The translations under genes and the position numbers were made by a program. DNA of 64,000 nt from Spizellomyces punctatus DAOM BR117 (Eukaryota): the NCBI GenBank assembly GCA_000182565.2, contig KQ257470.1. One strand, 5' to 3'. Under the pieces are notes generated by a model. That model made no database searches and had not been told where the DNA came from. It saw only the letters and a list, made by a program, of their open reading frames with translations. Shown piece after piece: positions 4,768 through 62,018 of the stretch (position 1 is its first letter; each line of letters begins with the position of its first letter).

Positions 4768-6335
4768 ATTCCAACGTGTACTTCGGATCATAGATTAGAC
4801 TTCCCTGTTACTGTATGGCACTTCCGAGGTGGTGAGTAAATTCCAAGCCTTGGAATGAATCCCCTTTACATTGCAGAAAACAAATTGACATTGCCTATTG
4901 CACCGATATATCGAGCTTCCCAATTCCTTGAGGAATTCGGCGCCCATTACCCTGGATGTACTTAGAGCTGTTGGCGCCGCGTGCAAGTTTCGGAGATTGC
5001 CTGAATCTAGTTTCCAATGCAGCACCGCTCAAAAAAAGATGATATCAGATTTTCCTAAACAGTCTGTGATTTGGCATTGAGGGAAAATGGATATCAATTG
5101 TTCGCATCGTTGCGTCATTATGAGAAGAAGATGCCCCACGTCGAAATGAAACCTTTGCTGATATTGATTTGAAAGTGTCACAAATCGAATCAAAAGTGAA
5201 GAACCAATCAGACATTGCAACTACTATACAAAGGTTTGAAATGAATGACAATGCTTCCTCTCGATTTGGAAGGCGTACATCTAGCCTCAGCCTAACCTCT
5301 CACCAATACTAATAATCCTACCTAATTCAACACGGACATATGTTTTCCATCAGCAAAAAATGAGGTTGATGGAAACATTCATGTTGACGCCGTGAATTGC
5401 ATTGCACCCCTTGTAGAGGGCAACACTCCATCTCGGATTTCGACAAAGGCGAGATCGTCATCGCCAGCACAGGTGTAGTAATGAGTTTCGACCTCCTCCT
5501 TTTTGATTGAAGAGGTTCACCCAAAACCACTTTATTAACAAGGATCTGAACGTCTTCCAAAACCCGGGCGGACCACTCAACACATGTGTATTGTTTGATC
5601 TGGATGTCCAGACGGTTGAAGTATTTGAATTTAAACTTAATGAGTATCTAACATTTGAATCAAATTTCAAAATCATTGGTAGTTAGGTCTAACTTCATAC
5701 AATGATAGGCACAGCCGACGATAGGATGAAGGTAAGAAGGACGTTTCATGCCCGCTCCTATTAATAATATAAAACTTTGATTCTGATATCGATATCAATT
5801 TTTTTCCCCAGCATATCGAAATGAGCAGAAACCCGCGACCGAAATAATAGTTGTCCTGTGGTGCTGCGACGTGAAACCTTATGTGGCGATAAGTAAACAT
5901 GGTGTGTGCCTAAACGAATCGTGCAAACGTAGATGGGGTCAAGTCGTGGCATCCTATGGTTGAGCCGAAGCCTTTACCTAAGAATCTTGGTTCTATTCAT
6001 TATAGTTGTATGAGAGGTGTTAAATGGCCTTGGAATCGCTGGTTCCTTTCTCCTCATGAAATCATCGAGGATTCCATGAACTCTGGGACGCAGGGTCGTA
6101 TATCAACTGAAAATGGCTGGCGAATGCAACAGCATAACCCGGTATAGAAGGTGCCTATTTAAAGAGCTTTAAAGAGCAGTACGCCCACATTCCGCAGATC
6201 ACTTACGCCCACTTACAGAAAGAAACAGGGAGCGCGCTGATAACAAAACCCAAATGACAAAGAACCTCCCCTCTGCTATGGTTATTAAAAGACATGGAGA
6301 TATGGAACAAGCCAATAGCATATATCTCCTACATA

Positions 6336-7051
6336 GTGTGGAGGTGATTGAAAATGGCACTAGGACCCATTATTATCCGGATTAATCCGGTTAATCATAT
6401 CGCATAATCAGCACCCCCTCTAACTCAAAAACGGTGTGGCATGCATGTAATGTCTTTTTATTAAACTGCGGTGAGGCGCATGCCAAAGGTCTGTAAAAGG
6501 GGAGCCTTTGCTCTCTCTCCCCTTCCTCACCAGTTCCTCGACTCTCAAACCATCTGCGCAACCCTCATCGCGACTTGGTCAATCATGAGAACGCCGATGT
6601 GGTGGTGCCGAGGACCTCGACCGCCCGACAGCAACCGTGATCAGAACCAGCGGCAACCAATCGGATCCGATAACAAAACTTACTATTATGCTGCCACATT
6701 AGTTGAGCTTGGTTGGTATGTATCGATGGCATTTCTTGCATTTCTTGTCATCGGGTCATCTTCTGACATGCAGTTTTTAGTCTCCAAGCCTTTGTCACTG
6801 AACATCCTCTGGCTTGTGACGCTGCCCAGTCGATTCGCTCCTGGATGCAAGAGTCTGGCTTCAATGCCATCAAGAGTTCCAGATCAAGGCCTAGTAGGGA
6901 CCGTGTGTGGTGGTGGGCAATTATCCGGTTAGAACCAACCGTTACGTATTGCGTGTATAATTGCCTAGTAGTAGCTTAGCTTTTCCGAACCGGTTGTCGC
7001 CGGTTTATTCTCTGGTGTAGTAGCTAGTGCCAGTTTCTGTCACCTCTACAC
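6336..7051 (+). mobile_element. Non-autonomous TIR element, Fanzor1 ghost-like, copy 1
   Basis: Left end GTGTGGAGGTGATTGAAAATGGCACTAG matches the reverse complement of the right end at 24/28. TA at 6334-35 and 7052-53. CATA at 6332-35. Homologous to the copies at 43020 and 61277. Confidence 0.9.
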
Positions 7052-7068
7052 TATTGATGAGAAACACA
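6980..7068 (+). ncRNA. Putative Fanzor omega-RNA: 74-nt scaffold (6980-7053) plus ~15-nt guide TTGATGAGAAACACA
   Basis: Scaffold CTTTTCCGAACCGGTTGTCGCCGGTTTATTCTCTGGTGTAGTAGCTAGTGCCAGTTTCTGTCACCTCTACACTA. Stem GAACCGG/CCGGTTT. Second stem GGTG..CACC has a loop TAGTG complementary to the terminal CACTA (pseudoknot). Closely resembles the SpuFz1 scaffold as recalled. Confidence 0.8.
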
Positions 7069-41324: not shown

Positions 41325-42866
41325 CTATTCAATTTGCATTGAAAATAAAAAGTCCAATACATCTCCCAACGTAATCACATTAGTTGGTTTACCCCCCTCA
41401 TTCACAAAAAATAAGTGATGAAATGTGTTCACGACCATGACGCGGAGGAGGTCGCGAAGACTCATGGTCCATGTTCCTGTTATATATGTTGCCTGTGGAG
41501 ATGGGAGATGAGGATATTGGGCGAGACGAAAACTGTTGATATAATATGAAGAACTTACAGAGTTTTTCTTGAGGAGCTCTCGTACAGTGAGAAAGAGGTC
41601 TTGAACATTGTTCGAGTTTAAAGTCTGAAAGAAGGTGTTTGTAAGTGTGGGGTACGGATGTCCAGCAGGGAGTGATAGCCAATCTTGTCGGGTCAACCCA
41701 GTTTCTTTCACTCCGCACTCCTTCAGCATCGAGCAGTTGTGCGCAAATCCTGGCAAGACATTTTTCGGAACTCTTGAGAGCTTTTCTCTTTGCACAAATC
41801 AGACGCCAGCATGCTACTTCTTGCTTCCTTATACTCCCTCTGCCGCCCTGGTATTACTCACCTTGATATGCCGTACAGTCATCATACCGGACATGACCAT
41901 CCCTGAATTCACAACCGGGACCGCTGTAACCCCCCGCTCCCTCATTTCCTTCAAAACTTCCAAAACAACTTTGTTTTCTCCACACGCAAATACCGGAGTT
42001 GTCCCTACAAATCCCAAGTCTAGCAACGAGGCATCAGGCCTCAGATGCAATCTATCGAGGTTGAGCAGTGCGAACTCAACGAGTGAGCTTTGTGTTACAA
42101 TGTGGTGGATGGTTTGGTTTGATAGCAGGATCAGGCGGGTTGCGCGATGCTGTTGAAGGGTTTTGAGGACGGTATGAACGGTTGAGGTTGCGGGGAGAGT
42201 GATTGTTGGGTTTCGTGATGAAAAGTCTGGGATGCGATTTAGGATTCATGGTTTGAGATCACTTGCAAGTCCCGCGTGGCATACCAATTCACGACAACCC
42301 ACCAGCCAAATCCTCACACGGCACGCTGATAATATCCTTTAAATGCTCCTCAAACGTACTTCGACCTAGTTGCGCATACGCATTCGATAAAAATGTTGCC
42401 TGCCGTGCCAGCGCCCATTAGTGTATGCTGACTCGTTTTGCAAAGCTCCACCAAACGTACAATATCCACTACATCCGTCAGGACGAAATCTGAATTGAAG
42501 CGAGGATAATTTAGCATTCCGGTTACCCATTCGCATGGTCTCCAAAGAAGAATGCGTACCGGTATTAGACCTCACAACAGGCGCACATGAAATATTCTTT
42601 ATCCTAAAGGTCTGCACAATATTACTCACTCTCCCAAGATCCTCTTTGCATTACGCACAAGACATACCTTGATGGTCTCCAGTAGTGTTGTCGTGGGTTC
42701 AAGTGTCACCAACGGACCTAATCAGCAAACTTCAGCATGGCAGTTCATGCGAAATAAAACCAAAGTCAGGAAACGCACGGTTGAACAGGACGACATGTTC
42801 AATAGATTCCTCCAGGAGCGCCCGCGTTGACTCTGGAGTGTAGAATGAGCTTTGTTGGTGACCCAT
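41325..42866 (-). CDS. CBS-domain protein (AMPK-gamma/Sds23-like), multi-exon
   Basis: CBS motifs NISCAPVV, GVTAVPVVNSG and FHHLFFVNEGGKPTNVITLGDVL. Spliced N-terminus MGHQQS. Confidence 0.8.
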
Positions 42867-43019
42867 TTAATTGTCATGCTCCAACAGTTGTCATGCGTTC
42901 CATTGTCGACAAGGTGTGAGGCTCCAAAAGGAACGATCTGCGACAAGGTTTGCAGTGGACAGGTGGAGTACTAAGCACGTCATGATAAACTTTAATTTTC
43001 AACGCTTTTGGATTTCTTA

Positions 43020-43752
43020 GTGTGGAGGTGATTGAAAATGGCACTAGGACCCATTATTATCCGGATTAATCCGGTTAGTCATATCGCATAATCAGAGCCC
43101 CCTCTATCGCTCAGATTGGTGTGGCATGCATGTAATGTTTTTTTTTTTTTTTTTAAAACTGCGGTGAGGTGCATGCCGAAGGTCTATAAAAGGGGGACCT
43201 TCTGTCTCTTTCCCCTTTCCTCTTTACCCATCCTCAACTCTCGAAGCATCTGCGCAACGCTCACGCAGCACTCTCAAGTCCATCATGAGAATGCCGCTCT
43301 GGTGTCGAGGACCTCGCCCTCCCGACAAAAACAACTTAACCCCTTGCAAACGCTGCTACTACTATACTGCTACGATCGCAGGTATTTCTTGCTGATTTTC
43401 CCACGCGTATTCCGAGTCTAATTCTGATCTACCTTAGTATCTGAAAATCCTCCGACCAAAGAATCTCGGAATCAAGGGCTTAGTAGGATTTCTCTCGTGG
43501 TGGTGGGCTTAGTTACCCGGTTAGAACCAACCGTAATGTATTGCATGTGTCATTGGGCCTAGTAGTAGTTAGCTTTTCACGTACCCCAGTTCAACCCAGG
43601 CTGGAACCTGTAGCGAGTTAGGATAGGGGTGGGACTCGCTTGCAGGATAGGTTATGAAGGGTTGGACAGGCTGGCTAATTGCAAATTAGAACCGGCTGTA
43701 GTGGGTTGGAGGGAGAATTTGTTCCTAGTGACATTTTCTACCACCTGCACAC
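43020..43752 (+). mobile_element. Non-autonomous TIR element, Fanzor1 ghost-like, copy 2 (long 3' module)
   Basis: Same left end as copy 1. Right-end reverse complement GTGTGCAGGTGGTAGAAAATGTCACTAGGA matches at 26/30. TA at 43018-19 and 43753-54. CTTA immediately 5'. Confidence 0.9.
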
Positions 43753-43769
43753 TAAGGCTAGGAATGCAA
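43573..43769 (+). ncRNA. Putative extended omega-RNA: ~182-nt scaffold plus guide AGGCTAGGAATGCAA
   Basis: Begins at the same GCTTTTC anchor as copies 1 and 3 and ends in CACTA. Contains several hairpins. The last stem has TAGTG in its loop, complementary to CACTA. Confidence 0.6.
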
Positions 43770-43999
43770 AACACATTTTCAAAGCTTTGCATTTCAAGAT
43801 ACAGGTTCAAGGAAGAGTGTGAAAGATCAAATCATTCGTATTATACATATTTCATATCTAAGCCGTCGTTTCCATATATACCAACTCGTGCATATCCATC
43901 CAGCACTTTATGATATCCCATACCACGCCGTAGATCTCAACGGATATATCAGTCCTCACGTATTCACATCCATAATGTACCAAGGTATATGATAAGGCA

Positions 44000-44839
44000 T
44001 TACAACACAACGCAAAACCACCATCTCGATTTCGCAACGTCTTGCTCCACAATCGAGTGTTGTTCTGATACCTTATCTACATTCTCTTCATTCTCACTAT
44101 CCGCATCCCATTGCTCGTCGTCATCAGGTATGTTGGAGTGCTCACCATCATTCGCAGTGGTGTGTTCAGCGGCTTTCGCAGCATGTGATGTTGCAGAGAC
44201 TGGGGCTACGGGGACACTGGCGGATGCAACATCTTGAATCTCTCTTGCATCGTCTTGGACAGCTTTGGTGGAAGTGAGAAGGGAAACAGGGTGCAATATT
44301 TCTGGGTCGATAGGTGCTGTTGTTGATGGAGGTTCCCTTGCGGGGTTGACTGTTGTTGTGTCCGTCGGTGTCGTGTCTGTCGGTGTCGTGTCCAGATGTT
44401 CAGATGATACAGTTTCTTCTTTGATGGGTATGGCAGATTCGTCGGTGACAGTGGATGCCGCTTCTTGAATGGCTTTGGCGTCTTCTTGGGCGGATTTTGC
44501 AGCGTCAAGGAGTGAAACCGATTGAAGGATGTGTGTGTCTGGATGCGTTGGGATTTCTCCGTCTTTTCGTTCCAATGGCTTATCTCTACTTGCTTCAACT
44601 CTGACAACATTATTTATATTACCCTCCGCATCTCTCAAAGTCCCCACCTCCTCGTTAACTCTCCACACCCCATCCACAATAAACTTGAACACAACTTCAC
44701 CCTCCTCAACCTCTTTCTCTGCACTAAAAGTTCCATCGGGTTGCTTTTCAAGCGGGAGGGAGTGCGACCAAGAGTCAAACGTCCCGGTAACGTGAACTGT
44801 TTGGGCCGGGTGAGGCCAGGTGAAAGCTAAGAGAGGCAT
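44000..44839 (-). CDS. CBM48/AMPK1_CBM glycogen-binding domain protein with C-terminal CAAX
   Basis: FTWPHPAQTVHVTGTFDSW..FKFIVDGVWR..GNINNVV. Acidic tail with a duplicated HxxILxxVSLL..K..Q.DA..IQ motif. Ends in CVVL. Confidence 0.9.
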   Translation of the reverse strand: MPLLAFTWPHPAQTVHVTGTFDSWSHSLPLEKQPDGTFSAEKEVEEGEVVFKFIVDGVWRVNEEVGTLRDAEGNINNVVRVEASRDKPLERKDGEIPTHPDTHILQSVSLLDAAKSAQEDAKAIQEAASTVTDESAIPIKEETVSSEHLDTTPTDTTPTDTTTVNPAREPPSTTAPIDPEILHPVSLLTSTKAVQDDAREIQDVASASVPVAPVSATSHAAKAAEHTTANDGEHSNIPDDDEQWDADSENEENVDKVSEQHSIVEQDVAKSRWWFCVVL

Positions 44840-45711
44840 AACTGTTGGCGGAAATGGGGGGAAGAAAAGATGGGCGAAAATGTAAACAGATCTTGGAGGG
44901 CGTGACGCAATGATGTCACGTGCGTATATCGATTGCCCGATTATCTAATGCGCGATATGGTCGCTTACCTGTTGATGGACGATGAATTGCTTTCTTTTAT
45001 GGTTTGGTTCCTACGAGTGTTTGTAAATGGACACTAGTGTTGGTGTGGTTTAGAACACGCCTCGTTGACTGGAGATGTCTGCGTCTCTAACATGTCAGTA
45101 GCTACGGATGGTTAATGCTAGAAAAAGGGAAATATGCCGTATCGTGGGTCTGCAAAACCCAAATCCTATTATAAGTAATAATTCACAGTGCTACATCGTG
45201 CATATCGATGTGAGATTGGGAATGACTTGCTGATATTTATTGTTCGTTGATGATCGGGCGCAGGAGCATATTGCATGTAATTTTGGTTGTGGTAACCGTC
45301 AAATCGAACGACCTGAACAGCGCCCATACAGCGTCCGTTGCCCTCCAGCTCTTCTCTCTTTACTGTCATTCCCTTTCCTTTCTCCCTCTCTCGAGGTGGG
45401 CCACACGGTCGTTGTGTGTCCGACCTGAGTGAATGGCTTATGGAGATTTCTGGCAGTATATGCAGCGGTGAATGAAGCCTGTCTGGGTATACCAACGCTG
45501 ACGGCTTGGGTGATAAAATGATGGTGGACAGGAACTCTCAATAAAGGGACAGTTTGCTTTTGGAAGCAGAGGTTCGAGCCTGCCAGTATTAGGGACAGTT
45601 GCAAACATCGATTACAGGTGTTTGATACTATGGGCAATGCTGCTATCTGAGCGGTCCATCTTGTGGCACATTCCCCAAAGGAAAGAGCTTTGGAGAATTT
45701 TCTTACATCAT

Positions 45712-61259: not shown

Positions 61260-61348
61260 TACAGAGAGCTATACTAGTGTATTGGCAATAACAAATGTCA
61301 CAACACAATACACCAGGGAATAAACCAGCGACAACCAGCCCGGAAAAG
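61260..61348 (-). ncRNA. Putative omega-RNA: 74-nt scaffold (61348-61275) plus guide GTATAGCTCTCTGTA
   Basis: Scaffold CTTTTCCGGGCTGGTTGTCGCTGGTTTATTCCCTGGTGTATTGTGTTGTGACATTTGTTATTGCCAATACACTA. Same length as copy 1. Stem 1 is kept through G-U pairs. Confidence 0.7.
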
Positions 61349-61930
61349 CCAAGTAAGTCCCTCCTTACAACCAACTACTGCTACTAGGCTCAATTACACA
61401 TGCAATACATTACGGTTGTTCTAACCGGGTAACTAAGCCCACCACCACGAGAGAAATCTTACTAAGCCCTTGATTCCGAGATTCTTTGGTCGGAGGATGT
61501 TCAGATACTAAGGTAGATCAGAATAATTAGACTGGATAATCCGCGTGGGAAAATACAAAGATAATGCATACCTGCGATCGTTGCAGCATAGTAGTAGCAG
61601 CGTTTGCAAGGGGTTCTGATTGCTGTTGCTGTCGGGCGGACGAGGTCCTCGGCACCAGAGCGGCATTCTCATGATGGACTTGAGAGTGTTGCTTGAATGT
61701 TGCGCAGATGCTTGCAAGTCGAGGGTAAAGAAACAAGAGGGAAGAGGGAGCAGGTCCCCTTTTATAGACCTTCAGCATGCACCTCACCGCAGTTTTAAAA
61801 AAAAGTTACATTATATTAGCATGCCACACCGATATGAGTGATAGATGGGGGGTGCTGATTATGCGATATGATTAACTGGATTAATCCGGATAATAATGGG
61901 TCCTAGTGCCATATTCAATCACCTCCACAG
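61277..61930 (-). mobile_element. Non-autonomous TIR element, Fanzor1 ghost-like, copy 3
   Basis: Minus-strand left end CTGTGGAGGTGATTGAATATGGCACTAGG is preceded by CATA (61934-31). TA at 61275-76. Interior is near-identical to copy 2 and the 3' end is collinear with copy 1. Confidence 0.9.
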
Positions 61931-62018
61931 TATGTACTGATTGTATACTGTGTAAACTGTGCATTTGTAAATATTCGCCTTTTACTATCTTCTATCTGAC
62001 TACCTAACTTAATAGTCC

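Follow-up and report, generated by a model that had tools for sequence, protein, structure and literature searches.

The window analysed here is a 64,000-nucleotide stretch of contig KQ257470.1 (assembly GCA_000182565.2) of the chytrid Spizellomyces punctatus DAOM BR117. It contains three ghost transposon copies with 30-nt inverted repeats and TA flanks and without a Fanzor gene, and the segment 43573-43769 is the right end of one of them, a ghost Spu-1 copy called copy 2 below (Table 1). Gene-less "ghost" transposons carrying a Fanzor1 guide-RNA part are a kind of element that has already been described.

Table 1. Features of the three ghost Spu-1 copies, with the parts of copy 2 in order along the window.
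Feature	Position	Strand	Detail
Ghost Spu-1 copy 1	6334..7053	+	74-nt scaffold 6980-7053: SL1 6988-7005, linker, stem 2
CT dinucleotide before left repeat, copy 2	43016..43017	+	reads CTTA
Ghost Spu-1 copy 2	43018-43754	+	182 nt from anchor C to end
Left 30-nt inverted repeat, copy 2	43018..43047	+	begins with TA, which flanks all three copies
Perfect palindrome CCGGATTAATCCGG	43061..43074	.	on the reverse complement occupies the SL1 place of the right end
TATAAAAG box upstream of transcribed part	43185..43192	+	kept in all three copies
Short spliced transcript body	43285..43568	+	ATG 43285, GT..AG intron 43382-43437
5' anchor CUUUUCA	43573..43579	+	canonical CUUUUCC, C7 to A; model positions 1-6
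Insert of ~108 nt between anchor and SL1	43580..43688	+	no second copy in window
79-nt branched hairpin domain	43589..43667	+	encloses hairpin 43607-43646; RNAfold, shuffles
Hairpin on 5' arm of SL1 relic	43666..43699	+	RNAfold, pair probabilities
SL1 relic	43690..43707	+	loop UGUA vs UGUC; model positions 9-26
Imperfect terminal stem	43699..43754	+	register shifted from canonical stem 2; UAGUG 43699-703 pairs with terminal CACUA
Right 30-nt inverted repeat	43725..43754	+	ends ACTA like the published scaffold; model positions 45-64
15-nt flank	43755..43769	+	guide position if the RNA were a working omega-RNA; position only
Ghost Spu-1 copy 3	61275..61932	-	74-nt scaffold 61348-61275

Three ghost Spu-1 copies

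Copies 1 and 2 share the same left repeat sequence, from which copy 3 deviates by a single mismatch, and the left-repeat pattern was matched three times in the window where no match was expected. The right end of copy 2 matches its own left end at 87.5% over 32 nt. In copies 1 (6332-6333) and 3 (61934-61933) the left repeat is preceded by CA, which together with TA forms the CATA TAM; this conserved dinucleotide upstream of the 5' repeat is absent at copy 2, where CT is found instead. The backbone of copy 2 is 86% identical to that of copy 3 over 566 aligned nt and holds short ORFs only, and no Fanzor ORF was found among the 10 largest ORFs of the window. SPPG_08830 of S. punctatus DAOM BR117 was the only protein retrieved at E <= 0.01 (1 of 24 candidates), with 98% identity across the covered part.

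The family can be identified because the SPPG_08830 match, the 30-nt repeats, the TA flanks, the CA of copies 1 and 3 and the lack of a Fanzor ORF all fit the published accounts (Bao and Jurka, 2013; Saito et al., 2023). The three copies match published ghost Spu-1, and copies 1 and 3 carry a 74-75-nt SpuFz1-type scaffold. The Fanzor context proposed in the preliminary description was thus correct. A plain Tc1/mariner-type MITE had also been considered and was overturned by the SPPG_08830 match and the published ghost Spu-1 description. The idea that the ghost ORF is the N-terminus of a longer protein, such as a Fanzor, was rejected on weak evidence, none of 14 longer candidates having scored. 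A degenerate 21-mer of the family, used to scan metagenomes, returned a single locus, which lies in an unrelated coding region and is therefore a chance match.

The canonical scaffold in copies 1 and 3

In the SpuFz1 scaffold, U5-C6-C7 stand directly before SL1 and C6 pairs with G20 (Saito et al., 2023, PMC10432273). SL1 has seven base pairs and the loop U16 G17 U18 C19 G20 (Saito et al., 2023, PMC10432273; Xu et al., 2024, PMC11423790), and it is followed by a 6-nt linker, A29 to C34, and by stem 2, closed by the terminal ACUA, with a guide of 14-15 nt (Saito et al., 2023, PMC10432273). Copies 1 and 3 fold as published, with a 7-nt 5' tail, SL1, the 6-nt linker and stem 2. The 74 nt of copy 1 (6980-7053) gave a fold z of -3.72, with 0 of 200 shuffles as good, and those of copy 3 (61348-61275) a z of -2.80, with 3 of 200. 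Copy 3 also has a private 26-nt insert (61375-61350) located 5' of the anchor. When copy 1 was compared with the nucleotides named from cryo-EM (U5 C6 C7, U16-G20, A29, C32, C34, U35, G37, A72 and A75), 13 of 14 were present, allowing a 1-nt offset after nt 20, and G22 was mismatched.

A covariance model (R1) was built from copies 1 and 3 and used to search the window with filters off at E <= 10. It scored 94.5 bits at copy 1 and 94.8 bits at copy 3. Its inner helix (helix 3) is out of register, with 0% paired, which leaves SL1 and the base of stem 2 unaffected.

The long right end of copy 2

It was suggested in the preliminary description that copy 2 carries a much longer module than its two relatives. 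The length was borne out (counted from the C of CTTTTC, 182 nt at 43573-43754 against 74 nt in copies 1 and 3), and every motif that it had named was found where it had been placed. The order of anchor, SL1 relic and inverted repeat is the same in copy 2 as in copies 1 and 3, and the linker and canonical stem 2 have been lost. None of the 14 hits of model R1 in the window fell on the right end of copy 2. Run on that end alone, the model recovered only collinear fragments of 0.1, 0.9 and 4.8 bits, namely positions 1-6 at 43573-79, positions 9-26 at 43690-707 (0.9 bits) and positions 45-64 at 43725-44 (4.8 bits).

The long end had been described as unalignable to the other copies until the terminal repeat. 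This did not hold: a 19-nt block (43689-43707) aligns collinearly to SL1 of copy 1 at 15 of 19 positions, a score reached by 27 of 1000 shuffles. The SL1 relic can form six of seven pairs (6 of 8 in the canonical register), with one G-G mismatch and C19 changed to A, and lies 66 nt from the element end, compared with 67 nt in copy 1. Among the contact nucleotides, U5 and C6 (in the distant anchor), U16, G17, U18, G20, A72 and A75 are kept, and C7, C19, the linker, U35 and G37 are lost. U5-C6-C7 directly before SL1 is absent, the anchor UCA being ~108 nt upstream and UUA preceding the SL1 relic. The 6-nt A29-C34 linker is likewise absent, its positions reading GAGGGA, and stem 2 keeps 5 of 10 pairs in the canonical register. 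The claim of a conserved architecture holds for the SL1 relic, for the anchor and for the terminal stem in its shifted register, and for nothing else. To judge from this collinearity, the copy 2 end appears as a diverged relative of the SpuFz1 scaffold and not as a separate module.

The insert has no significant match to the scaffolds of copies 1 and 3. Its origin by direct or inverted duplication of the neighboring SL1 region found no support, since 350 and 288 of 2000 shuffles, respectively, scored as well. A repeat search in the module yielded only two 12-nt repeats, one direct and one inverted. The insert is not flanked by terminal repeats or by a target duplication, and a search of the module for a coding remnant found no open frame.

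Folding

The helices proposed by eye were reproduced in the RNAfold minimum-energy structure of 43573-43754, which contains 43589-98 paired with 43659-67, the hairpins 43607-43646 and 43666-43699, and a GAGA/UUUG inner stem. Stability is concentrated in the domain 43589-43667 (z -3.92, 0 of 200 shuffles as stable) and in its hairpin 43607-43646 (z -3.56, 0 of 200; 14 of 5000 random 40-nt tiles of the window as stable). Values were z -1.99 (9 of 200) for the hairpin 43666-43699, z -2.15 (3 of 200) for the terminal stem 43699-43754, and an unexceptional z -1.40 (17 of 200) for the whole 182 nt. The last 74 nt of copy 2 fold at chance level (z -0.46, with 371 of 2000 window tiles as stable). Folding of the sense strand is favored by 4.5 kcal/mol over that of the antisense strand, on which the inverted repeat is also significant (z -4.71). 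Rfam searches found no family at the gathering threshold in the window except a tRNA elsewhere, and only two chance-level matches (E 4-5) in the 1-kb region.

Because the hairpin 43666-43699 uses the 5' arm of the SL1 relic, the two compete: in the 182-nt context the hairpin has pair probabilities of 0.77-0.999 and the relic 0.0. In the last 74 nt the pair probability of the relic is 0.46, and alone it folds at -6.4 kcal/mol, compared with -4.1 for the working-type SL1 of copy 3. SL1 of copy 3 is also abolished in silico once its natural upstream context is added, and an argument that SL1 is sequestered in copy 2 is therefore weak. SL1 and the shifted terminal stem share 43699-43707 and thus cannot form together. 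The stem closing on the terminal ACUA has been kept through changes on both sides at two positions.

The preliminary description also held that copy 2 has the same terminal pseudoknot as the other copies. However, the TAGTG (43726-30) and CACTA (43750-54) concerned both lie within the 30-nt right repeat, and the left repeat holds the same pair mirrored (43018-22 and 43042-46). What had been read as a "terminal pseudoknot" is a TAGTG..CACTA palindrome belonging to the repeat itself. Nested folding, by which pseudoknots cannot be represented, joins the terminal CACUA to UAGUG at 43699-703 with a probability of 0.65-0.94 in 182-nt contexts and gives the repeat-internal TAGTG/CACTA pairing a probability of 0.0.

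The left end mimics the layout of the right end: CCGG-type subterminal motifs occur at both, and model R1 gave a hit of 9.7 bits on the left end (43018-43084, minus strand).

Transcription, depth and variants

RNA coverage climbs in bin 43226-43296, downstream of the TATAAAAG box, and the transcript body of copy 2 ends in a stop cluster, TAGTAGTAG, at 43560-43568. The NCBI model SPPG_08830 has the same splice junction as copy 1, and RNA depth dips in bin 43368-43438. The reading frame is not conserved across the three copies, which differ by 4-nt, 17-nt and 2-nt indels. A small protein gene carried as cargo was therefore rejected as the main function.

In RNA run X23, sense depth over the module was 645, 1249 and 424, against 8.6-24 antisense; strand was called from a neighboring minus-strand gene, at which first mates read the RNA strand. 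Downstream of the TATA box inside the element, sense-strand reads of the family extend over the region, and no discrete starts or ends inside the module were reported from ordinary RNA-seq (one run). Ghost elements appear to bear their own TATA promoter and intron, with the omega-RNA as the 3' end of the sense transcript. This observation bears on how eukaryotic omega-RNAs are expressed and is perhaps of more general use.

Contigs carrying 43581-43722 had a depth of 452 against ~124 on the flank in DNA set X3, and of 17.6 against 2.8-4.6 in set X9, although contig depth is not copy number. The raised depth in these two sets hints that the long form has several genomic copies and is not single-copy, a state that by the preliminary description would have counted as its refutation. 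Two variants fall in the stems of the hairpin 43607-43646: 43639 C>T, in 556 of 597 sense-direction reads, gives a G-U pair, and 43633 G>A, in 84 of 587 reads, gives U-A, with pairing retained in both cases. A strand-switch joint 43607/43647 occurs in three reads. Joints of this kind commonly arise as artefacts of hairpins in DNA or cDNA.

Discussion

Copy 2 is probably a minor variant of a known element with a drifted guide-RNA end, and not a new RNA class. The long form most likely represents a minor ghost subfamily whose guide-RNA end is weak or degenerate. Copy 2 itself is probably a remodelled right end of such a minor ghost Spu-1 subfamily, impaired or inactive as a SpuFz1 guide. In this remodelling the CUUUUC anchor would have been kept, followed by the structured ~108-nt insert and a weakened SL1; the canonical linker and the 5' strand of stem 2 would have gone, leaving the terminal repeat to pair in a shifted register. 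The region may form the 3' part of a short spliced transcript made from the element itself, and the resulting RNA, at a site that also lacks the CATA TAM, would guide SpuFz1 poorly or not at all. The subfamily could nevertheless persist because its spread would depend on inverted repeats acted on in trans, for which its own RNA is not needed. The stable SL1 relic, the stable insert, the pair-keeping variants, the sense-strand fold bias and the reported gain in SpuFz1 activity from 5' extensions are points that count against this explanation.

An alternative is a working natural expansion of the SpuFz1 omega-RNA, with the insert as a self-folding domain or 5' protective structure. SL1 and the terminal stem would then still form on the protein, and the RNA would guide SpuFz1 like other ghosts. 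The insert domain is significantly structured, both variant sites in its hairpin preserve pairing of the sense RNA, and an SL1 relic with six of seven pairs has been kept at the right distance from the end, together with the stem closing on ACUA through two-sided changes. The region beyond SL1 is described as unconstrained (Xu et al., 2024, PMC11423790). Moreover, 5' extensions or a 5' hairpin increase SpuFz1 activity in human cells (Saito et al., 2023, PMC10432273), and a natural structured domain on the 5' side could therefore be useful. The region is transcribed, and the higher contig depth is a hint of more than one copy. However, C7 and C19, both named as contacts to the protein or within the tertiary structure, are altered and there is no linker, the anchor lies ~108 nt from SL1, SL1 and the shifted terminal stem are mutually exclusive, the last 74 nt have no excess stability, and the covariance model finds no full match. 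The CA is missing from the left flank as well, and poorer editing has been reported for ghost scaffolds that lie far from the canonical one (Chen et al., 2026, PMC13434818). On balance we consider a working expansion unlikely. It is a rather improbable proposal that copy-2-type ghosts carry an expanded omega-RNA whose ~108-nt domain stabilises the guide RNA, in the manner of engineered 5' extensions, or gates SL1, and which still loads onto SpuFz1 or a close paralogue; if true, a natural expansion segment would thereby be documented for the first time in a eukaryotic omega-RNA within a single species.

The hairpins might instead be a DNA-level inverted repeat, carried passively in the 3' untranslated part as a small fold-back insertion or as extra subterminal transposase-binding repeats, and would then be no RNA feature. 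The significance of the inverted repeat on the antisense strand, the subterminal motifs at both ends with the left mimicking the right, the RNA-seq without discrete starts or ends inside the module and the strand-switch joint in three reads all agree with this. Yet the insert is bounded by no terminal repeats or target duplication, its duplication from a neighbor is unsupported, and the G-U pairs favor a sense RNA, which makes a purely DNA-level origin improbable. Less probable still is a second-class scaffold for a different Fanzor paralogue, as the preliminary description had proposed. Between SL1 and the repeat no alignment to copies 1 and 3 is possible, and in length 182 nt is nearer to the 150-nt omega-RNA of GtFz1 (PMC11423790) than to that of SpuFz1. 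Nevertheless, the module sits on an ordinary ghost backbone with ordinary repeats, it keeps collinear relics of a SpuFz1-type scaffold, and the window is without a Fanzor gene among its 10 largest ORFs. Nothing in the results supports a separate class, and most SpuFz1-contact nucleotides are missing.

SpuFz1 and ghost omega-RNAs are under engineering as compact genome editors. In this regard, a naturally expanded right end shows which parts of the scaffold can vary in the host. An active form would mean that the scaffold accepts a large domain beside its 5' anchor. If it is inactive, as seems more likely, copy 2 is a decaying member of a known family and no new category is needed.

Published ghost Spu-1 elements have 30-nt repeats, TA flanks, a conserved interior of ~550 nt with no Fanzor gene, and a right end that takes in the repeat and is akin to the SpuFz1 scaffold (Saito et al., 2023, PMC10432273). 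Copies 1 and 3 agree with them in every respect tested, whereas copy 2 differs in its right end of 182 instead of ~75 nt, in the absence of a linker and canonical stem 2, and in CT for CA. The main-text treatments of ghosts and scaffold lengths do not describe the long form (Saito et al., 2023, PMC10432273; Chen et al., 2026, PMC13434818). The same right ends were surveyed as gst1-gst126, with several small divergent clusters, and natural scaffold variation there provided the best short scaffold, gst28 (Chen et al., 2026, PMC13434818). As described in that survey, all entries were taken as 74-76 nt, and an upstream insert would therefore escape notice.

The SPu-1 element, from the same species, has terminal inverted repeats of ~33 bp and a putative TA target duplication; it is ~2.1 kb long and encodes a 633-aa Fanzor1 (Bao and Jurka, 2013, PMC3627910). 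The copies in the window are ~660-740 bp and encode none. The canonical SpuFz1 omega-RNA is made up of the U-C-C anchor, a 7-bp SL1 with a UGUCG-type loop, the terminal ACUA and the guide (PMC10432273; PMC11423790). Copy 2 retains a weakened anchor, SL1 and the terminal ACUA, but its terminal stem has a different register and shares bases with SL1, and it has no A..C linker. The omega-RNA of ISDra2 TnpB is likewise a guide RNA overlapping the right end of its transposon, and it was to TnpB omega-RNAs that the preliminary description likened the module in size. It has a pseudoknot, in contrast to the solved SpuFz1 omega-RNA, which is stated to be without one (Saito et al., 2023, PMC10432273, Extended Data Fig. 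10e legend).

Results

Each of the three gene-less ghost Spu-1 elements starts with TAGTG or TACTG, ends with CACTA, has its terminal 30-32 nt as inverted repeats and is flanked by TA on both sides; the two ends of copy 2 match at 87.5% over 32 nt. In the S. punctatus genome, 134 ghost Spu-1 loci are reported beside 42 Fanzor loci; the ghost loci have a conserved region of ~550 nt inside 30-nt inverted repeats, a conserved CA 5' of the left repeat (TAM, the target-adjacent motif, CATA) and a right-end 75 nt constituting an omega-RNA scaffold that SpuFz1, the Fanzor1 of this fungus, can use (Saito et al., 2023; PMC10432273). Terminal inverted repeats of ~33 bp and putative TA duplications were described for SPu-1 (Bao and Jurka, 2013; PMC3627910). 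The window, which is eukaryotic, contains housekeeping genes, and its 10 largest ORFs include no Fanzor- or TnpB-like ORF. SPPG_08830 of S. punctatus DAOM BR117 (NCBI) was the sole database relative of the 150-aa ORF of copy 1 (E ≤ 0.01 in 1 of 24 candidates), with 98% identity covering 29% of the query.

Among the nucleotides named in the cryo-EM description (compared: U5 C6 C7, U16 G17 U18 C19 G20, A29, C32, C34, U35, G37, A72, A75), 13 of 14 are present in copy 1 when a 1-nt offset is allowed after position 20; G22 of that description is mismatched. The scaffolds of copies 1 and 3 fold in the published layout (7-nt 5' tail, stem-loop SL1, 6-nt linker, then a stem 2 that the terminal ACUA closes), with z-scores of -3.72 (0/200 shuffles) and -2.80 (3/200). 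Given the published ghost features, the named nucleotides, the SPPG_08830 match and this layout, copies 1 and 3 are ghost Spu-1 elements of the ordinary, already known type, and their omega-RNA scaffolds are ordinary ghost scaffolds too. Elsewhere in the window lie a tandem repeat and a tRNA gene, the latter being the sole Rfam match at gathering threshold; its length of 83 nt suggests that it contains an intron.

Coordinates of the elements, putative expression units, scaffold fragments and other features
Feature	Position	Strand	Basis or remark
Copy 1	6334-7053	+	repeat and alignment
Copy 2	43018-43754	+	repeat and alignment
Copy 3	61932-61275	-	repeat and alignment
Putative expression unit	43185-43568	+	box, ATG, intron, stop cluster
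Putative expression unit	6490-6985	+	box, ATG, intron, stop cluster
Putative expression unit	61765-61375	-	box, ATG, intron, stop cluster
Copy 2 fragment, model positions 1-6	43573-79	+	covariance model
Copy 2 fragment, model positions 9-26	43690-43707	+	covariance model, 0.9 bits
Copy 2 fragment, model positions 45-64	within right repeat	+	covariance model, 4.8 bits
tRNA gene	14570-14652		55.6 bits
Tandem pair of 78-nt units	31926-32081		83% identity

To judge by its identity to copy 3 (86%, 566 aligned nt) and copy 1 (81%, 315 nt), the backbone of copy 2 is an ordinary ghost backbone. Counted from the C of the common CTTTTC anchor, its scaffold region measures 182 nt vs. 74 nt in copies 1 and 3, and a recount bore out these lengths in the preliminary description along with its coordinates and motifs. 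The anchor of copy 2 reads CUUUUCA (C7 replaced by A). That the sequence cannot be aligned to the other copies until the terminal repeat holds for the ~108 nt following the anchor, which have no second copy in the window, but not for 43689-43707: this 19-nt block aligns to SL1 of copy 1 at 15 of 19 positions (a score reached by 27/1000 shuffles), and its distance to the end of the element is 66 nt, vs. 67 nt for SL1 in copy 1. A covariance model trained on copies 1 and 3 scored them at 94.5 and 94.8 bits; run over the whole window without filters, it returned 14 matches at E ≤ 10, none of them at the right end of copy 2. On the 251-nt region alone it found only three fragments, which are collinear. 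In the canonical register, six of eight SL1 pairs and five of ten stem-2 pairs are kept, GAGGGA occupies the linker positions and A replaces C19 in the loop. Because collinear fragments and some of the SL1 and stem-2 pairs persist, the module is, on sequence grounds, a remodelled derivative of an SpuFz1-type scaffold and not an unrelated module. Nor does a clean insertion into the old scaffold fully describe it.

For the 182 nt, minimum-energy folding gives the structure previously drawn by eye. Stability exceeds chance for individual pieces, namely the domain 43589-43667 (z -3.92, 0/200 shuffles), its hairpin 43607-43646 (z -3.56, 0/200; equalled by 14/5000 random 40-nt tiles of the window), the hairpin 43666-43699 (z -1.99, 9/200) and the terminal stem 43699-43754 (z -2.15, 3/200), but not for the module as a whole (z -1.40, 17/200; 18/600 tiles equal). 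The last 74 nt, the counterpart of a working scaffold, are unremarkable (z -0.46; 371/2000 tiles equal), compared with merely 58/2000 equal tiles for the copy 1 scaffold. At precisely the two feet of hairpin 43607-43646 (43607/43647), opposite strands are joined in three RNA reads, the usual template-switch artefact of a strong hairpin. The weakened SL1 of copy 2 (the SL1 relic) has its 5' arm taken by hairpin 43666-43699 and its 3' arm by a shifted terminal stem, so its pair probability is 0.0 in the 182-nt context and ~0.46 in the last 74 nt alone. This computed competition carries limited weight, because SL1 of copy 3 is likewise lowered in silico when its native upstream sequence is included, and the isolated relic, at -6.4 kcal/mol, exceeds SL1 of copy 3 (-4.1 kcal/mol) in stability.

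Four coded sequencing runs were mapped to 42800-44900, two of which (X3 and X9) were taken by guess as DNA. Contigs carrying 43581-43722, with two other letters in each, had depths of 452 in X3 (~124 on the unique flank) and 17.6 in X9 (2.8-4.6), and the shared ghost backbone reached 14,000-42,000 in X3. These values hint at several copies of the long form; depth is no copy number and gives no count. In the RNA run X23, 78,342 reads mapped, 76,562 of them only partly on the stretch; since 69,193 were 95-99% alike, the reads come mostly from paralogous copies. First mates in the minus direction cover the neighbouring minus-strand gene; first mates therefore have the orientation of the RNA, and transcription of the element runs in the omega-RNA sense. 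Sense depth in successive bins from 43226-96 was 16,650, 4,952, 300 (intron bin), 11,270 and 11,569, then 645, 1,249 and 424 over the long module and 2.6 beyond the element, with antisense depth at 8.6-52 from the intron bin up to the end of the element. RNA:DNA depth ratios are similar for the long module (~0.6-1.6) and the backbone (~0.8), which puts co-transcription of the module near the family average. No clustered read starts or ends were reported in X23, an ordinary cDNA run of 60-nt reads that cannot reveal small RNA. Two variants fall in the stem of hairpin 43607-43646: C>T at 43639 (556/597 sense-direction reads), giving a G-U pair, and G>A at 43633 (84/587), giving a U-A pair. Both preserve pairing in the sense RNA, which is a hint and not a covariation test.

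The ghost units share an order of conserved TATAAAAG box, ATG, GT..AG intron (43382-43437 in copy 2), TAGTAGTAG stop cluster and omega-RNA region as the 3' end. Sense coverage sets in ~40-55 nt past the TATA box, with a drop over the intron bin, and SPPG_08830 has the same splice junction as copy 1. Ghost elements thus look like self-expressing units. As reading frames are not alike between copies, this transcript probably carries the omega-RNA without coding for protein. In the text of Saito et al. (2023), the word intron is absent and promoter is limited to expression constructs.

Read as reverse complement, the left ends at 43018-43084 (-) and 6334-6400 (-) resemble the right-end scaffold layout, with the palindrome CCGGATTAATCCGG forming a CCGG-loop-CCGG hairpin where SL1 would lie and the repeat coming next; their scores under the scaffold model are 9.7 and 7.0 bits, respectively. 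SL1 could have arisen from a subterminal DNA motif of both ends, or could itself serve as one. In copy 3, a separate 26-nt insert (61350-61375, -) stands between its stop cluster and its CUUUUCC anchor. X3 and X9 contain this variant as loose ends at 43570, and another with extra letters before 43572 that precedes the long module. The stretch directly 5' of the scaffold looks like an insertion hot spot.

Discussion

The best-supported reading is that copy 2 represents a minor ghost Spu-1 subfamily, in which the omega-RNA end would have been remodelled by a structured insert together with a diverged linker and stem 2. As a guide, its RNA is probably impaired or inactive. A working expansion of the omega-RNA, as the preliminary description allowed, seems unlikely: copy 2 lacks C7, C19 and the linker, its anchor and SL1 are far apart, SL1 overlaps the sole good terminal stem, and the scaffold core has no stability excess. 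Furthermore, natural ghost scaffolds far from the canonical one gave lower editing (Chen et al., 2026; PMC13434818). The CA before the left repeat is also absent, 43016-43017 being CT, and the emptied site would be CTTA and not the CATA TAM that SpuFz1 strictly needs (Saito et al., 2023). In favor of a working expansion, SL1 alone is conserved among Fz1 omega-RNAs, the remainder being unconstrained (Xu et al., 2024; PMC11423790), and the relic retains six of its seven pairs. The insert has a stable fold, and 5' extensions or a 5' hairpin raised SpuFz1 activity (Saito et al., 2023). That the insert is purely a DNA-level feature appears quite unlikely, and a scaffold serving a different Fanzor, also raised in the preliminary description, highly improbable.

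The ghost family and its guide-RNA ends are already published, and Saito et al. (2023) was the only literature found to combine Fanzor, Spizellomyces punctatus and ghost. The survey of natural ghost scaffolds took every scaffold as 74-76 nt (Chen et al., 2026). Main-text passages of these two papers on ghosts or scaffold lengths do not describe the long form; their supplementary locus and scaffold lists may include this locus.

The terminal pseudoknot first proposed for copy 2 is not supported. Its pentamers, TAGTG (43726-30) and CACTA (43750-54), both lie within the 30-nt right repeat and have a mirrored pair in the left repeat; it is therefore the repeat, as DNA, that makes them complementary. 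In nested folding, which does not model pseudoknots, the terminal CACUA pairs 5' of the repeat in all three copies; its partner is nt 34-38 in copies 1 and 3 and 43699-703 in copy 2. The solved SpuFz1 omega-RNA comprises two stems plus a linker and, according to a figure legend, is without a pseudoknot, unlike the omega-RNA of ISDra2 TnpB, which has one (Saito et al., 2023).
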